From: a virus
Strand: one strand, 5' to 3'
IMG/VR virus record: IMGVR_UViG_3300046787_000200
Span: 213,090-277,089 of that record
DNA: 64,000 bases
Part shown: in pieces, positions 33,461 through 64,000 of the stretch
How positions within the stretch are numbered: position 1 is the first letter of the stretch
How the letters are laid out: every line of letters starts with the position of its first letter
Program-made: the position numbers and the translations under genes
The notes under the pieces: generated by a model
Seen by the model: only the letters and a program-made list of their open reading frames with translations
What the model was told of the DNA's origin: nothing
The model's database searches: none

Positions 33461-35029
33461 ATGCGCTTAAAATTCCTATCTTTTTCAAATCTTACATTAT
33501 TGGTTGCACTATCATTAAGTTCAGTAGCAGCCTGGTATAGTATCATTGGCTTAACCGCTATCTTTGCAGGTGCGGTTATTCCTGTTATCATTATGGGTTC
33601 TATACTCGAAGTAGGTAAGATTACTACTACAGTATGGTTACGTAAATACTGGCATCGTGCTAGTTGGGTACTCAAACTATATCTTGTTCCTGCTGTTGTA
33701 GCATTAGCATTACTCACAAGCATGGGTATCTTTGGCTTCTTAAGTAAAGCGCACATGGACCAAGGTATCACATCAGGTGATGTGCAGGCTAAGTTAGCAC
33801 TTTATGATGAGAAGATAAAGACACAAAGAGATAATATTGAGTTAGCACGTAAAGCATTAACTCAAATGGATAACCAAGTTGACCAACGATTAAGTAGAGG
33901 TGATAGTGAAACTAGTGCTGAACGTGCAGTTGCTATTCGTAGACAACAAGCAGGTGAACGTAGTAAACTACAAAAAGATATTGGTGATGCACAAACACAA
34001 ATTGCTAAACTAAACGAAGAACGTGCGCCTATTGCGGCAGAGAATCGTAAAGTAGAAGCAGAAGTAGGTCCTATCAAATATATTGCCGCATTAATTTATG
34101 GTGATACTGCTGATAATAATATGTTAGAAAGTGCGGTAAGATGGGTTATTATATTATTGGTTGTTGTATTTGATCCATTGGCAATTGCACTTGTTCTTGC
34201 CGCTAATGCAAGTAAAGAATGGGATCTTGAAGAACCCGCAGAATATGATAAACCAGATGCATGGGTTGCTGATGTAGGTGAAAAACCTACTGTAGAAGAA
34301 ATTGAACCAGCATACGAGCCAGATGACGGTCCATTAACTGAAGAACAGATTGAACAAATCAAAGAAAGTGTCGATCCTGCTCCACCTGGATGGATGTTTG
34401 AGAAAAGTTCTATTATAAAAGATGAACCAGAAAAGTCAGTTGCAGAGTTGCATCCATACTTGAATCAGCCGTTCACACACTTTACTGATACTAAGCCAAT
34501 GGTTGCGCCCAAAGAAGAAGTAAAAGAAGAACCTATCGTTGAGAAAAAGCTAAAGAAGAAACGTGCTAAGAAAAAGGTTGAGCCAACTATTGAAACAGTA
34601 GACGTAACTACTGAAGAAGTTGTATTGCCTCCGGTAACAAAGTATAAAGAAATGCCTGGTGGTTATGTTGACTTTGAAGGTAAGCAGATTCAAAAAGATG
34701 CATTAAAGAGTTTGCGTCCGGATTTGTTTATGGTTAAACCAGACAGAACAAATGGGCAAGTTGAAACAGATTTTGGAACAAAGTTCCCCGAAACAGCAAA
34801 ACGTGGTAATATCTTTGTTCGTGTAGATGTTTCTCCCAATCGTGTCTATAAGTTTGATGGCCGTCAATGGATTGAAATGCAAAAGGAACAAACCGATACA
34901 TACCTTCACAACCAAAAGTATATTGAATTCCTAGTAGGAAAAATAGAAAAAGGTGAGTATGATATCGAGTTATTGTCCGATACCGAACGTGAAGAAATTG
35001 CCCAATATTTAGGTAACCAAAAGAGTTGA
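33461..35029 (+). CDS. large membrane protein with an N-terminal multi-TM region and extended coiled-coil/charged domains
   Basis: 522 aa. Three or four hydrophobic helices in the first 100 aa, a heptad-like charged middle section, and another TM around residue 225. Confidence 0.5.
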   Translation: MRLKFLSFSNLTLLVALSLSSVAAWYSIIGLTAIFAGAVIPVIIMGSILEVGKITTTVWLRKYWHRASWVLKLYLVPAVVALALLTSMGIFGFLSKAHMDQGITSGDVQAKLALYDEKIKTQRDNIELARKALTQMDNQVDQRLSRGDSETSAERAVAIRRQQAGERSKLQKDIGDAQTQIAKLNEERAPIAAENRKVEAEVGPIKYIAALIYGDTADNNMLESAVRWVIILLVVVFDPLAIALVLAANASKEWDLEEPAEYDKPDAWVADVGEKPTVEEIEPAYEPDDGPLTEEQIEQIKESVDPAPPGWMFEKSSIIKDEPEKSVAELHPYLNQPFTHFTDTKPMVAPKEEVKEEPIVEKKLKKKRAKKKVEPTIETVDVTTEEVVLPPVTKYKEMPGGYVDFEGKQIQKDALKSLRPDLFMVKPDRTNGQVETDFGTKFPETAKRGNIFVRVDVSPNRVYKFDGRQWIEMQKEQTDTYLHNQKYIEFLVGKIEKGEYDIELLSDTEREEIAQYLGNQKS

Positions 35030-35035
35030 AAACAA

Positions 35036-35064
35036 TTAAGTATTAGTATATAATATACATATTG
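35036..35064 (+). promoter_or_regulatory. sigma70-like promoter TTGAAA-N17-TATAAT
   Basis: Upstream of the lipoprotein gene at 35085. Confidence 0.4.
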
Positions 35065-36711: not shown

Positions 36712-37914
36712 ATGTCAACAGAAAACAAACTCAATCATTGCTCATTTTGTGATAAACACAAAGATGATGTTAAGAAACTAATTGTTAGCGAAGAAGTGGC
36801 AATTTGTAGTGATTGCGTAGAACTATGCAATTCACTTATGTTAGATGATGATGGTAAAAGTGAATTTGTATCGGAAGATACTGTATCATATGATCCAGAA
36901 TCAATTAAAGATTATCTTGACCAACATGTTATCGGACAAGATAATGCTAAAAAAGTGTTAAGTGTTGCTATTGCTAATCACTATAAACGTATCAACCGGC
37001 CACCAAAAGACTTAGAAATCTCTAAGGGTAATGTGTTGCTTGTTGGTCCTACTGGCTCAGGTAAAACATTGCTTGCTAAGACAGTTGCCAAATATCTCAA
37101 AGTGCCCTTTGTTGTAGCAGATGCGACAAGTATCACTGAAGCTGGTTATGTAGGTGATGACGTTGAATCCATGATTAGTATGTTACTCAATGCCGCTGGC
37201 GGTGATGTTAAACTGGCCGAGCGTGGTATTGTGTTCATTGATGAGATTGACAAGATTGCACGTAAAGGCGAATCTGCAAGTATCACCCGTGATGTGTCAG
37301 GTGAGGGTGTTCAGCAAGCTTTACTGAAAATGGTTGAAGGCACTGTATGTCGTATTCCAGCAGGTGGTGGACGTAAACATCCCGGTGGTGATATGATTGA
37401 GATTAACACTAAGAATATCTTATTCATTGCCGGTGGTGCATTTGTTGGGTTGAAAGATATTATTAAAAGTAGAGAAACTGGATCTAGTATCGGGTTCGGG
37501 GCTAAAATCAAAGATAAGAGCATAGAGGGCAATCTAAGCAACGTTAGCCCAGACGATTTAGTTAAATTCGGTATGATTCCTGAATTCATCGGACGTTTCA
37601 CTACTACTGTAAACGTAGAGGATTTGAGCAAAGAAGATTTGGTAAAGGTATTGACTGGTATTAAGAATAACTATATCGACCAATACAAGTATTTGCTGAG
37701 TTTAGACAACATTGAGTTAAACTTCACAGAAGATGCATTGGATCAGTTAGCAGAGAATACACTAGCATTGAAAACAGGTGCTCGTGGATTGCATACTGAG
37801 ATTGAGCGTGTATTGATGACACATATGTTTAATACTAAGAAATACCGTGAAAATAAAATTCTAAACATAAATATAGATAGAAAACAAATTTTGGAGCCAA
37901 AAGTATTAGTATGA
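36712..37914 (+). CDS. clpX: ATP-dependent Clp protease ATP-binding subunit ClpX
   Basis: N-terminal C4 zinc domain (CSFC ... CSDC), Walker A LLVGPTGSGKTLLAKT, and ClpX-wide similarity over 400 aa. Confidence 0.9.
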   Translation: MSTENKLNHCSFCDKHKDDVKKLIVSEEVAICSDCVELCNSLMLDDDGKSEFVSEDTVSYDPESIKDYLDQHVIGQDNAKKVLSVAIANHYKRINRPPKDLEISKGNVLLVGPTGSGKTLLAKTVAKYLKVPFVVADATSITEAGYVGDDVESMISMLLNAAGGDVKLAERGIVFIDEIDKIARKGESASITRDVSGEGVQQALLKMVEGTVCRIPAGGGRKHPGGDMIEINTKNILFIAGGAFVGLKDIIKSRETGSSIGFGAKIKDKSIEGNLSNVSPDDLVKFGMIPEFIGRFTTTVNVEDLSKEDLVKVLTGIKNNYIDQYKYLLSLDNIELNFTEDALDQLAENTLALKTGARGLHTEIERVLMTHMFNTKKYRENKILNINIDRKQILEPKVLV

Positions 37915-38126
37915 GAGGTAGAAAGGTTTTAGTTCAGGACGGAAACGTAGACAAAGCATTGCGAAAATTTAAAAAAATTATCGCAGACTATGGTACCTTG
38001 CAAGAGGTTCGTGACCGTCAAGAATTTGTAAAGCCTACTATCAAACGCAAATTAGCAAGAAGCCAGGCGAAAAGACGCTGGAACAAGTATTTGCGTGACC
38101 AAAGTCTTCCTAAGAAAAACTTTTAA
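37911..38126 (+). CDS. rpsU: ribosomal protein bS21
   Basis: 71 aa. KVLVQDGNVDKALRKFKK ... EVRDRQEFVKPTIKRK aligns with bacterial S21. ATGA overlap with clpX. Confidence 0.8.
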   Translation: MRGRKVLVQDGNVDKALRKFKKIIADYGTLQEVRDRQEFVKPTIKRKLARSQAKRRWNKYLRDQSLPKKNF

Positions 38127-60328: not shown

Positions 60329-60514
60329 ATGTCTAAGAAAAATCCAGCAAAAAATTATGATAGCTATGAAGTTATCACCCAAGAAGATCCTGAAACGGGC
60401 GATATGTTGATACCCATTCCTCCTCATTTGTTAGCAGAATTAGGTTGGAAAGAAGGAGATGATGTTGATTTTTCTATCGATGAAAAAGGCAGAATAATAG
60501 TTAAAAAAGTATGA
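60329..60514 (+). CDS. hypothetical protein
   Basis: 61 aa ORF. Confidence 0.35.
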   Translation: MSKKNPAKNYDSYEVITQEDPETGDMLIPIPPHLLAELGWKEGDDVDFSIDEKGRIIVKKV

Positions 60515-60948
60515 GTTATTCAATATACGACAATACAATGAATACTGTTAACACAGTATCAGTTACCGGCCCTACTCCATCCCCGGTATATACTACTACC
60601 GGAACAGGAAGTTCAGGACTATATTGGGGTATGAATGGGACGAGCGGTGGTTCTGGTCAAGTACTGACTACAAACGGCACTAATCCTAGTTGGATTACTG
60701 CAGATCCAAATCTAAAAGGTGCATCAATTCAAGTTAAAGGTGATGCTGAGTTTGACGGTGAAGTCACTATTAAAGGCAAGAAGCTAACAGAAATGTTTGA
60801 AAAGATAGAAGAACGATTAGCTATCCTTCACCCAAACCCAGAGTTAGAAGATAAATGGGAAAATCTTCGTGGCTTACGCAAAGCTTACATGGAATTAGAG
60901 CAGGAAATCATAGAAAAAGAGCGTGTTTGGAAGATTCTAAAAGATTGA
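60511..60948 (+). CDS. hypothetical protein
   Basis: 145 aa. Stop TGA lies inside the next -35. Confidence 0.4.
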   Translation: MSYSIYDNTMNTVNTVSVTGPTPSPVYTTTGTGSSGLYWGMNGTSGGSGQVLTTNGTNPSWITADPNLKGASIQVKGDAEFDGEVTIKGKKLTEMFEKIEERLAILHPNPELEDKWENLRGLRKAYMELEQEIIEKERVWKILKD

Positions 60949-60973
60949 CAAATATTCCATATTTTGCTATAAT
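60945..60973 (+). promoter_or_regulatory. consensus early promoter TTGACA-N17-TATAAT
   Basis: TTGACA at 60945, TATAAT at 60968. Confidence 0.5.
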
Positions 60974-61005: not shown

Positions 61006-61398
61006 ATGACCATGCACTTAGCACATCCCGCACTATCCATGGGCGGCAAACGCAAAGGTAAAACAAAGTTTCGCAATAGCGCAGAAGCTCAGAAAGCCCG
61101 TCAGCTTGATGCTGATTGGAAAGAATTACAGAAAAAATGGGAAGTCGATGCCGATGACAAAAAGCGCAAACGTGCATTGGCGGCTGAACCATTATCATAT
61201 AACTTATCAGCACCGGTAGGTCGTGCGACATCAAACAACATCCCAAGTCGTGTAACTGCAGGTGGTTCTACTGCACCTATTCATAAGGTCTATACTGGTA
61301 ATAAGATTCTTGGTATTGGTACTATGCACAAAAGTAATGCTGTGCCTATCTTTAGTGACGAGCAGGCTGTAGAAATTTCAAGGATGCGCCGTGGCTGA
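61006..61398 (+). CDS. hypothetical basic protein
   Basis: 130 aa ORF. Confidence 0.4.
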   Translation: MTMHLAHPALSMGGKRKGKTKFRNSAEAQKARQLDADWKELQKKWEVDADDKKRKRALAAEPLSYNLSAPVGRATSNNIPSRVTAGGSTAPIHKVYTGNKILGIGTMHKSNAVPIFSDEQAVEISRMRRG

Positions 61399-61675
61399 GT
61401 ATACTTTCTATTGTGTAGTGTCTAAAGATCGCCCACAACTTGAAATTAGTGCAGGTACATATAGATTTACTTCAATGAGTACCTATCATAGAAATACTAA
61501 AATAGTTGCGGCAAGCGACAAAGTTTGGCGTGTGGGTCCTAAAGGTGGTGTAAAGATTACCAAAGACCGTTATCATTTGTTTGGTAGCAGTAAATATGTT
61601 ACCAAAGATGAAACACAAATGAAACAATTTATGTGGGTTAAACTACAAGCCCAAGAATTTAAAAAAGGAGCGTAA
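61391..61675 (+). CDS. hypothetical protein
   Basis: 94 aa ORF. Confidence 0.4.
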
Positions 61676-61686
61676 AGCAAACATAT

Positions 61687-61902
61687 ATGGCTAAAGAAGA
61701 AGGCATTAGGATGGACGGTAAGGTAATCGATGTATTACCTAATGCCGTCTTTAGAGTTACATTAAACAGCGGTGCTACTGTTACCGGCTATATATCGGGT
61801 AAGATGCGTCAGCACGATATTAAAATACTATTAGGTGACACTGTAGAAATTGAGTTTAGTCCATATGATTTGACTAAAGGTCGCATAGTAAGACGCAGAT
61901 AA
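61687..61902 (+). CDS. infA: translation initiation factor IF-1
   Basis: 71 aa. [24 protein letters not shown] ... GYISGKMR ... [22 protein letters not shown] is near-collinear with bacterial IF-1 (S1/OB fold). Confidence 0.85.
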
Positions 61903-62648
61903 TGTTACACATTAATGATGGGTTTTTAGGATTAAGCCCAATGCATACTGTCAATAATATTAATAATACTCTCTATTCAGGGCATGATAGTTTAGAACTA
62001 TACAAAAAGAACTTGAAGTATAAACCAATCGATTGGTATTACAGAGATAAAATGATAAATTATTCCTACAATAATTTAGGTCACAGATGTAAACCTATCA
62101 GAGAAATCAATTTAGAAAATTATATCCTATTTATAGGATGTAGCCATACTGAAGGTGTAGGTAATCTATTAGAAGATACATTTCCCTATATTGTATCTAA
62201 TGAGTTACAATGCGATTATTATAACTTATCTATTGGTGGTACCGGAATCGATACAATGGTTTATAATTTAAATATGTGGTTGCATAAGATTAAAAATCCA
62301 CCAAAATATATAGTCTGGCAACAACCAGAACCAACTAGATATCTATCATATGATGATAAAACTATTAATATAAATGGACTTTGGCACAATACAGAACTAG
62401 TGCAAAACTTCATTATTGCCGGGGATATGAATAACTTCTTTAATGCTAGAGTAAAACTAGCACAGGAACTATTAAAACAAATACCTAATGTCATTCAAAT
62501 TGACTTTTTTACAAAAACAAATAACAATATATTCTTTGAAAAGCTAGATTCAGCAAGAGATGATCGCCATTACGGTATGTTATCTAATAGAAATGTTGCA
62601 AACTTATTAATAGAAAATATAAAAAATCATAATAATAAGGATAAATAA
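61902..62648 (+). CDS. SGNH-like hydrolase paralog
   Basis: [11 protein letters not shown] and ARDDRHYG blocks parallel those of the ORF at 19439. Confidence 0.4.
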
Positions 62649-62652
62649 TAGT

Positions 62653-62985
62653 ATGAATTTAACAATCACCGAATCAGCAGCCGCTAGAATGGCTGAATTA
62701 TTAGCAGACGAAGGTTTAACAGACCACACTAGAGTTCGTGTTTTTGTTCAAGGAGGGGGCTGTTCCGGTATGGAATATGGCTTTACTTTTTCGGATGAAA
62801 AGAACGAAGATGACTGGGAAGTTCCAGCCGGCTCATCAGTTGTATTAGTTGATAGTATGTCAGCCCAATACTTAAGTAGCGCAGAAATTGACTATGTTGA
62901 AGATTTAAACGGTGCTAGATTCAAAATAAACAATCCAAACGCACAAACTACGTGCGGATGCGGTAGTAGCTTTAGTCCATTCTGA
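62653..62985 (+). CDS. iscA: A-type iron-sulfur cluster carrier (IscA/ErpA, HesB family)
   Basis: [15 protein letters not shown] and a C-terminal CGCGSSF. Confidence 0.8.
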
Positions 62986-63034: not shown

Positions 63035-64000
63035 ATGGCTATAGGAAACTTACAAGTAATCAGTATTGGCTTGCCCAATGAGTCTACGGGCAGTGATTCA
63101 CTTTATACCGCATTTACCAAAACAGCAGAAAATTTTGACACATTATTCGCATGTGCCAGCCCATACTCCACGTTTGCTAACGGAGCGGGTATTGAAACTA
63201 ATACCAATTCAAATACTAATACAGTAACAATCACTAACACTGGTGTAACTTATTTACAAGCAGGGTCAGGTGTTACACTATCTGGTAATACTGGAAATAT
63301 TACAATTTCAACTACAGGAAGTAACGGTGGTGCCGGCACTGTTACTAGTGTAGGCGTGAATTCTAGTACGTTAACCATATCTAACAGCCCTATTATTAGT
63401 GCAGGTAATATCACTGTTAATCTGCCAGTAACTGGTATTACTGCAGGTACATATACCAATCCTACTGTTGCAGTAGACGTATATGGTAGAGTAACAACTA
63501 TATCAAATAATACAGTTTCAGGTACTGTTACTAGCGTAGGTATCACTCCGGGGACGGGTATCTTAGTCACAAATAGTCCAATTACAAGCTCAGGTAATAT
63601 TACTGTTACTAATACAGGTGTTACTAGAATTAGTGCCGGAACAGGCATTGCAGTTAGTGGTAGCAACGGTAATGTAACTGTGTCTGCTACAGGATTGACA
63701 AACGGAACAGTAACCAGTGTTACTGTAACTAGTAACAATTTGACTGTTTCAGGTGGGACTATCACAACGTCAGGTTCAATAGCAGTTGATTTACCTAGTG
63801 CAATAACACTTGCAGGAAACATTACTGCAGGTAATGTATTATCTAATGGTAGAATGATACTTAACGGTAGTGAAGATTTAGCTGATGCGGCTGCGGCAAA
63901 TCTATTAGTTACTGCAAGTTACTTCACTACAACTACCGCAGAGACTGCTACATTAGCAGCCGGAACTACCGGACAAATTAAAACATTTATGATGGCAGGT
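63035..64000 (+). CDS. tail fibre protein (N-terminal part; runs off the window end)
   Basis: Repeats such as GITAGTYTNPTVAVDVYGRVTTI and VTSVG..S..ISNSPI.S.GNITV are Phage_fiber_2-type tail-fibre repeats. No stop before 64000. Confidence 0.6.
   Translation, partial: MAIGNLQVISIGLPNESTGSDSLYTAFTKTAENFDTLFACASPYSTFANGAGIETNTNSNTNTVTITNTGVTYLQAGSGVTLSGNTGNITISTTGSNGGAGTVTSVGVNSSTLTISNSPIISAGNITVNLPVTGITAGTYTNPTVAVDVYGRVTTISNNTVSGTVTSVGITPGTGILVTNSPITSSGNITVTNTGVTRISAGTGIAVSGSNGNVTVSATGLTNGTVTSVTVTSNNLTVSGGTITTSGSIAVDLPSAITLAGNITAGNVLSNGRMILNGSEDLADAAAANLLVTASYFTTTTAETATLAAGTTGQIKTFMMAG

Follow-up and report, generated by a model that had tools for sequence, protein, structure and literature searches.

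A bacterial-type translation initiation factor IF-1 in a probable lineage of uncultured large phages, encoded behind a conserved sigma-70 consensus promoter

Huge phages are known to carry genes for two initiation factors, IF1 and IF3, and for the ribosomal proteins S1, S4, S21 and L7/L12, and these genes have been read as tools that intercept or redirect host translation (Al-Shayeb et al. 2020, Nature 578:425, PMC7162821). The observation was repeated for IF1 in a 2025 study of soil huge phages (PMC11748809), and in both studies the phage initiation factors were only catalogued. Uncultured freshwater phages with ~300-kb genomes carry a further translation-initiation component, bS21, which was proposed to substitute into host ribosomes; IF-1 is unmentioned in that work (Chen et al. 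2022, ISME Commun 2:31). The bS21 gene of those phages lies on the reverse strand within the capsid/terminase module and is late, and their hosts are Bacteroidetes. Among cultured jumbo phages, Sinorhizobium phage Phosso (PV764938, 469 kb) has an annotated IF-1, and structures of the bacterial factor are available from E. coli (1AH9 and 9FCO chain I) and T. thermophilus (1HR0, on 30S). The IF-1 gene described here was found in a 64,000-nucleotide stretch of viral DNA (the window), and joins an already described class, that of huge-phage IF1 alongside S21. The gene lies near the end of the window:

61687..61902, + strand: infA, translation initiation factor IF-1, 71 aa, one OB (S1-like) domain; ATG start, TAA stop

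The original prediction had named this ORF infA and described it as nearly collinear with E. coli IF-1, and both points held. Alignment to E. coli IF-1 residues 1-70 required zero gaps, with 57-59% identity, and the predicted consensus string was correct. In the IF-1 profile search, the product scored 103.2 bits against NCBIfam TIGR00008, the infA equivalog model (cutoff 61.15), with residues 3-70 matching model positions 1-68 of 69, and 78.4 bits against Pfam PF01176 (eIF-1a; cutoff 30.2). The closest PDB sequences were bacterial IF-1, namely E. coli 9fco_I (E 5e-22) followed by 1ah9 (E 2.5e-21). An AlphaFold2 model built on 40 sequences of the viral lineage defined below had a mean pLDDT of 90.4 and showed a five-strand barrel (strands 8-17, 21-26, 31-36, 52-58 and 61-70) with a short helix at 38-42. 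When this model was compared to the PDB using Foldseek, 30S-bound E. coli IF-1 (9fco_I) ranked first (TM 0.95, rmsd 0.8 A, 70 columns) and ranks 1-13 were all bacterial IF-1. Structures of eIF1A/aIF1A appeared only after these, at 17-29% identity and with the target partly covered (TMt 0.40-0.74). An archaeal or eukaryotic aIF1A/eIF1A, a protein of ~95-145 aa with an OB domain, a helical subdomain and tails, was ruled out by the 71-aa, OB-only phage product. Pfam matches at E<=0.01 consisted of eIF-1a and a weak RsgA_N, and neither CSD nor S1 was among them. This, and the fact that the leading sequence and structure matches were all IF-1, then eIF1A/aIF1A, ruled out a generic OB-fold or cold-shock protein. 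Judged by its sequence and modelled fold, the 71-codon gene is a true bacterial-type IF-1 ortholog, carried by what is very probably an uncultured large phage. The family is already present in PHROGs as phrog_30201, without annotation.

The IF-1 has many relatives in metagenomes. A search of a large protein database returned 5,464 matches at E<=1e-10; the best 120 of these were metagenomic proteins 79-96% identical to the window protein, many of which JGI already labels IF-1, and their contigs reach 361 kb. In IMG/VR, at least 241 viral contigs carried a confirmed IF-1 relative, and the best 80 of the 241 shared 68-97% identity and lay on contigs of up to 303-367 kb. The gene order common to the exact protein and a close relative is DUF4337, NT5C, MazE/AbrB-like, unknown ORFs, IF-1, a variable gene and an IscA-like gene, after which large repeat-rich proteins follow; one contig with this order is 361.6 kb long. 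Across 80 IF-1 loci, the same-strand neighbours were the genes starting at 60511 (g60511; 78/80) and 61006 (g61006; 77/80), the MazE-like gene (72/80), NT5C (67/80) and IscA (65/80). The MazE-like gene, which encodes a 61-aa SpoVT/AbrB (MazE-antitoxin-like) protein at 60329-60514 (+ strand) upstream of IF-1, has no evident toxin partner adjoining it. One IMG/VR contig (IMGVR_UViG_3300027749_002876; 524,565 bp) carries two different IF-1 copies ~358 kb apart in opposite orientation, and probably represents two related ~350-kb genomes fused in assembly.

The original prediction had called IF-1 genes rare in viruses, and this stands for deposited phages, where 35 of 50,697 GenBank records matched in tblastn (at least one of them bacterial), all at <60% identity; in huge phages, however, IF-1 together with S21 has already been reported. 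The 35 matches include Phosso, LR756511, LR756508, Lak phages and Bacteroides DAC/SJC phages. The record named 'Acinetobacter phage MD-2021a' (CAKLQH020000005.1) has infA amid leuB, leuD, truA, ansA and gadX and is bacterial chromosome, and several short unannotated OR84xxxx 'phage' records with IF-1 matches may likewise be bacterial. Megablast of the 58-64 kb part of the window against the 50,697 phage records returned no match, and the window therefore has no close sequenced relative in that collection. The known huge-phage IF1 genes (LR756511, LR756508, Lak and soil phages) resemble the one described here in residing in a large phage genome with IF1, bS21 and other translation genes, but their products share only 45-59% identity with the window protein, fall outside its lineage in the tree and have another genomic context. 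The Phosso IF-1 is 58.6% identical, has V16, G34 and L49 like the window lineage and likewise lacks an aromatic residue at position 44, and the Phosso ClpX ranks second among the matches to the window ClpX in the phage collection, or first (52.5%) if only named cultured phages are counted. In contrast to the window, Phosso has a Clp-family ATPase and a MutT-like protein as IF-1 neighbours, and N at position 46 of the factor.

An intact IF-1 ORF of 70-72 codons was present in 86/86 related loci. The median dN/dS was 0.07 (Nei-Gojobori, 58 distinct 71-codon sequences) and synonymous sites were saturated in 1003 of 1653 pairs, indicating that IF-1 has long been held under strong constraint. For comparison with bacteria, an infA panel was drawn by scanning GTDB, with each species represented by one genome, using motifs that are partly gammaproteobacterial, and the panel is dominated by Gammaproteobacteria. 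Among the GTDB matches listed, the identity of bacterial infA products did not exceed 66% to the window protein or 69% to any member of the lineage, and no recent host donor of IF-1 was found among them. A neighbour-joining tree of 139 distinct sequences placed the viral lineage in one bipartition (bootstrap 148/200), with an unstable sister group: a Brocadiaceae MAG in the point tree, and Phosso in 92/200 bootstraps (46%). The base composition of the gene (GC 39%, GC3 32%) is close to that of the rest of the window (37% and 29%). The comparison with infA that had been proposed as a check for recent transfer thus argues against it, and the bacterial identity ceiling, the separate tree branch, the matching base composition and the purifying selection together point to IF-1 as old cargo that was probably inherited vertically, rather than a gene recently captured from a host. 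In the wider group of phages the gene is accessory, and related phages can dispense with it, as IF-1 lay within 4 kb in 25/70 viral loci retrieved through g61006 and was missing there in the other 45/70.

The window contains ~123 ORFs (102 on the + strand) at 93% coding density, mostly short and without a family match, and has a GC content of about 36% throughout. The genes that could be recognised are usual large-phage cargo: a phage-type ATP-dependent DNA ligase (phrog_114), dCMP deaminase, a 5'-3' exonuclease, UvdE, QueD, QueE, an NT5C nucleotidase, Hsp20, SAM synthetase, ClpP, ClpX, ClpS and bS21. No tRNA was found in the window using ARAGORN. No capsid, portal or terminase was found by PHROGs and Pfam among 76 window proteins and 10 downstream proteins in the +/-10 kb related loci; the sole hits of that kind in these scans were a ClpP carrying the label 'head maturation protease' and a single Laminin_G_3 hit ('virion structural protein'). 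Since these hallmark genes were not found, the viral assignment rests on architecture, gene content and the IMG/VR classification, with the single-strand consensus promoters described below also in its favour, and the case for an uncultured 'jumbo' tailed phage of the ~350-kb class as the source of the window is strong but indirect. The same gap, together with the GenBank 'phage' record that proved to be bacterial chromosome, is what would favour a bacterial, plasmid or mis-assembled fragment carrying the host's own infA. We regard that explanation as very unlikely: the stop and start codons of the gene and its neighbour overlap, at least 80 viral contigs repeat the synteny, the IF-1 composition matches its neighbours, and bacterial identities are no more than 66% to the window protein and 69% to the lineage among the matches listed. 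The absence of tRNA genes, the single ribosomal protein gene among the ORFs scanned, the short unmatched one-strand ORFs and the matches of ClpX and its adjoining gene to jumbo phages SCTP-2, Phosso and Atu_ph07 also count against it.

At the end of the window, a + strand ORF (63035-64000, MAIGNLQV start) rich in GNITV/TGVT repeats runs out of the sequence, and a 190-aa minus-strand ORF at 63250-63822 is its shadow. The full-length homologue in the related locus L003 (3651-4772) has 373 aa, and is followed there by a 692-aa protein, a glycine-rich protein and a Laminin_G_3 protein, which may be fibre-like virion proteins. A tblastn search of phages for the repeat-rich proteins that lie downstream of IscA gave no match.

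The IF-1 gene is the third of a string of same-strand genes behind a consensus promoter, in the order g61006, g61391, IF-1, g61902 and IscA. The features around it are:

60945..60973, + strand: sigma-70 consensus promoter, TTGACA-17 nt-TATAAT with TG before the -10; 12/12 match, in the 57-nt gap before g61006
61006..61398, + strand: g61006, first operon gene, 130-aa basic protein of unknown function; phrog_27048, full length, E 3e-28
61391..61675, + strand: variable 94-aa ORF between g61006 and IF-1; present in 20/80 IF-1 loci, no family match
61666..61670, + strand: AGGAG Shine-Dalgarno-like motif, 16 nt ahead of the IF-1 ATG, a long and poor spacing
61902..62648, + strand: 248-aa gene after IF-1; present in 18/80 loci, weak DUF6473 match only
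62653..62985, + strand: IscA/ErpA-type Fe-S cluster assembly protein; Pfam Fe-S_biosyn 1.2e-19, downstream of IF-1 in 65/80 loci

The IF-1 stop codon overlaps the start of the 248-aa gene (TAATG). In the 361.6-kb relative, the slot after IF-1 (L001 10213-10782) is occupied by an Fe-superoxide dismutase instead of the 248-aa gene, and the distance from IF-1 to IscA across loci ranges from 15 bp to 8 kb. The first gene, g61006, had no PDB or Pfam match, and is related to proteins of Delftia phage PhiW-14, Acidovorax phage ACP17 and Synechococcus phage BUCT-ZZ01. Its family is widespread in IMG/VR, on at least 597 contigs. A role for g61006 as a dedicated IF-1 partner was rejected, as IF-1 lies near only 25/70 of its loci and a membrane-protein and ClpX module adjoins it otherwise.

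The promoter is shared across the lineage. Within 1 kb upstream of IF-1, a 12/12 match was present in 54 and an 11/12 match in 17 of 83 related loci, compared to a promoter match in 17 of 300 random 1-kb pieces of the same loci. These promoters sit at two fixed offsets from IF-1, ~-480 and ~-745, because the 94-aa ORF is either absent or present. Across the window, TTGACA-N16-18-TATAAT occurs 14 times as a perfect match, always on the + strand, versus 0.14 expected by chance, and matches at 11 or more of the 12 positions number 23 on the + strand and 0 on the - strand. The perfect promoters are located at:

8367, 8588, 12605, 23073, 23343, 23666, 25926, 26747, 29374, 29640, 43367, 44281, 44587 and 60945, + strand: perfect sigma-70 consensus promoters, TTGACA-N17-TATAAT

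Many of the perfect promoters have spacer letters in common (TTGACAATAAAT....TTTGGGTnTATAAT), a sign of an extended early-promoter motif specific to the phage. As the promoter upstream of IF-1 is a perfect consensus and is conserved across the lineage, it suggests that the IF-1 operon is transcribed early by the host sigma-70 RNA polymerase. Canonical TTGACA/TATAAT promoters speak against a Bacteroidota host, and the host would be expected to be one that uses such promoters. Shine-Dalgarno usage was seen for part of the genes, with AGGA 4-14 nt upstream of 32% of 104 window genes compared to 3% of background. No description of an operon with an early-type promoter like that of the IF-1 lineage was found in the literature.

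The original prediction also pointed to an S21 gene in the window. It was located 23.5 kb upstream of IF-1, as the last gene of a string that comprises a 206-aa ORF (putative ClpP), a 322-aa ORF, ClpX and bS21:

35085, + strand: start of the 206-aa ORF that opens the Clp-S21 string; putative ClpP, taken to be the Clp protease that Pfam found in the window
36712-37914, + strand: ClpX; its stop overlaps the bS21 start
37911..38126, + strand: ribosomal protein bS21; Pfam Ribosomal_S21 5.5e-16, phrog_21469

An 11/12 promoter match lies at 35026-35054, directly before the 206-aa ORF, and a ClpS adaptor encoded at another place in the window was found by Pfam. The phage thus has a complete set of Clp protease genes beside one for a ribosomal protein. 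ClpX and its neighbouring ORF match the jumbo phages Salicola SCTP-2, Sinorhizobium Phosso and Agrobacterium Atu_ph07. Beside the Clp module, a 522-aa membrane/coiled-coil protein (33461-35029, + strand) is conserved with Salicola phage SCTP-2, and this membrane protein adjoins g61006 and ClpX in many IMG/VR contigs. In being uncultured, large and equipped with a translation-initiation component, the phage is like the bS21 freshwater phages of Chen et al. (2022), but its bS21 gene follows ClpX behind a sigma-70-type promoter, and membership in that group was rejected since S21 context, GC content and promoter type differ. From the promoters we infer that both translation genes, IF-1 and bS21, would be read by the host sigma-70 polymerase with early-type expression.

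The residues through which bacterial IF-1 contacts the ribosome are largely kept in the lineage (numbering collinear with E. coli IF-1, initiator Met counted). L17, P18, N19, K/R39, M40, R41, K46, Y60, K64, R66 and R70 are kept in 94-100% of lineage members, with R41 and R70 at 100%, and S37-G38, I45, G50-D51, P59-Y60-D61 and G65 are also kept. In the bacterial factor, the L17-P18-N19 loop is the part that enters helix 44. Published assignments place K39 and M42 at the 530 loop, R41 and R46 at the flipped-out A1492/A1493, and H35, Y60, R64 and R66 on the S12 side (PMC10913371), and 30S binding is reported to require Arg69 as counted in the mature protein, equivalent to position 70 in the present numbering (PMC4611024). 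In its length, OB domain, helix-44 loop and basic contacts, the phage protein resembles bacterial IF-1 (1AH9, 9FCO chain I and 1HR0). The pattern fits a functional IF-1 that would occupy the host 30S A site in the manner of the host factor and would supplement or replace host IF-1 early in infection, and this we consider the probable role of the protein.

A role off the ribosome was weighed against the same residues. RNA chaperone and transcription antiterminator activities are described for E. coli IF1, and an OB fold with a basic surface, behind an early-type promoter, could serve as a cold-shock-like RNA chaperone or antiterminator that aids structured phage RNAs. However, the conservation in the lineage tracks ribosome contacts (R70 and the L17-P18-N19 loop) beyond a generic RNA-binding face, and the Pfam search gave neither CSD nor S1 similarity at E<=0.01, making this alternative improbable.

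The phage protein differs from bacterial IF-1 in being phage-encoded, in a series of lineage-fixed substitutions and in a 25-31 loop that is hypervariable in the lineage, where bacteria retain N28-G29-H30. In the bacterial panel, which is dominated by Gammaproteobacteria, the substitutions T16V, T20A, A34G, H35Y, Y44D, T49L, T54E, L57F and Y/F69R fall at positions that are 81-99% conserved, and those of Y44D, H35Y, T49L, L57F and Y/F69R at positions that are 93-99% conserved. A further, conservative change, R46K, has K in 98% of the lineage compared to R in 93% and K in 7% of the panel. Position 35 is Y in 84% of the lineage where bacteria have H, and the protein ends in RRR, with residue 71 the last. 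Some of these states were seen elsewhere: Y35 in a Nitrospirota MAG (L103) and R69 in Bacteroides phage DAC19.

These lineage-fixed substitutions mean that the phage protein may not act exactly like host IF-1. They could alter how start sites or mRNAs are selected, or how the factor works with IF2, IF3 or the 50S subunit, and so favour phage messages over those of the host, perhaps together with bS21. The changes at the 93-99%-conserved positions and the hypervariable loop would suit such a phage-tuned factor, as would the bS21 gene in the same early-type region, and phage bS21 has itself been proposed as a selector of phage transcripts (PMC9723584). On the other hand, the basic contact residues are all kept, and the basic function is hence probably unchanged; the panel is biased, and K46, Y35 and R69 all occur outside the lineage; and no recognisable feature of phage mRNA was found, with Shine-Dalgarno usage ordinary and partial. 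We therefore consider a tuned factor unlikely, and are equally doubtful of its more specific form, in which early phage IF-1 and bS21 would build altered 30S pre-initiation complexes with changed mRNA or start-codon selection or changed subunit-joining kinetics.

Early expression and altered surface residues might also be expected of a decoy or inhibitor, which would occupy the 30S A site unproductively and shut off translation in the host, or would titrate either a host factor or a defence that senses or targets IF-1. Yet the phage depends on the same ribosomes, the sequence carries no sign of lost release or of lost cooperation with IF2 and IF3, and the whole protein is under strong purifying selection, like a bona fide IF-1. 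A decoy is extremely unlikely on these grounds.

The role as a functional initiation factor can be set out as a proposed sequence of events. The phage lineage would have acquired IF-1 long ago and passed it down vertically. On infection, the host sigma-70 RNA polymerase would transcribe the IF-1 operon from the perfect consensus promoter, and the phage IF-1 would enter the host 30S A site, contacting helix 44, the flipped-out A1492/A1493, the 530 loop and S12, and would cooperate with host IF2 and IF3. The initiation capacity of the infected cell could then be kept or raised during phage takeover, and the phage bS21 and ClpXP/ClpS encoded in the same early-type region could extend this to a broader remodelling of host translation and proteostasis. 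The analysis shows the identity and predicted fold of the protein, the retention of its contact residues, the selection on it, the synteny and the promoter conservation, while we infer 30S binding, when the gene is expressed and what the phage gains from it, and the earlier suggestion that the phage manipulates 30S initiation complexes, drawn from the pairing of IF-1 with S21, may apply to the same extent.

The finding confirms the existing picture of huge-phage translation genes and leaves it unchanged. What is added here is the size and coherence of one IF-1 lineage, the strength of purifying selection on it, the evidence against recent transfer, the lineage-fixed substitutions and the conserved host-type promoter. 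We know of no functional study of phage-borne initiation factors, and the lineage is good material for a first one, as it offers hundreds of natural variants of a 71-residue protein, a clear mark of long purifying selection, lineage-fixed changes on a well-understood scaffold whose ribosome-bound structures are available, and a conserved host-type promoter that predicts early expression. If the phage factor simply supplements host IF-1, then the supply of IF-1 would be limiting in infected cells. If its selectivity is altered, it would be a compact case of viral control and reprogramming of bacterial translation initiation that goes beyond topping up a host factor.
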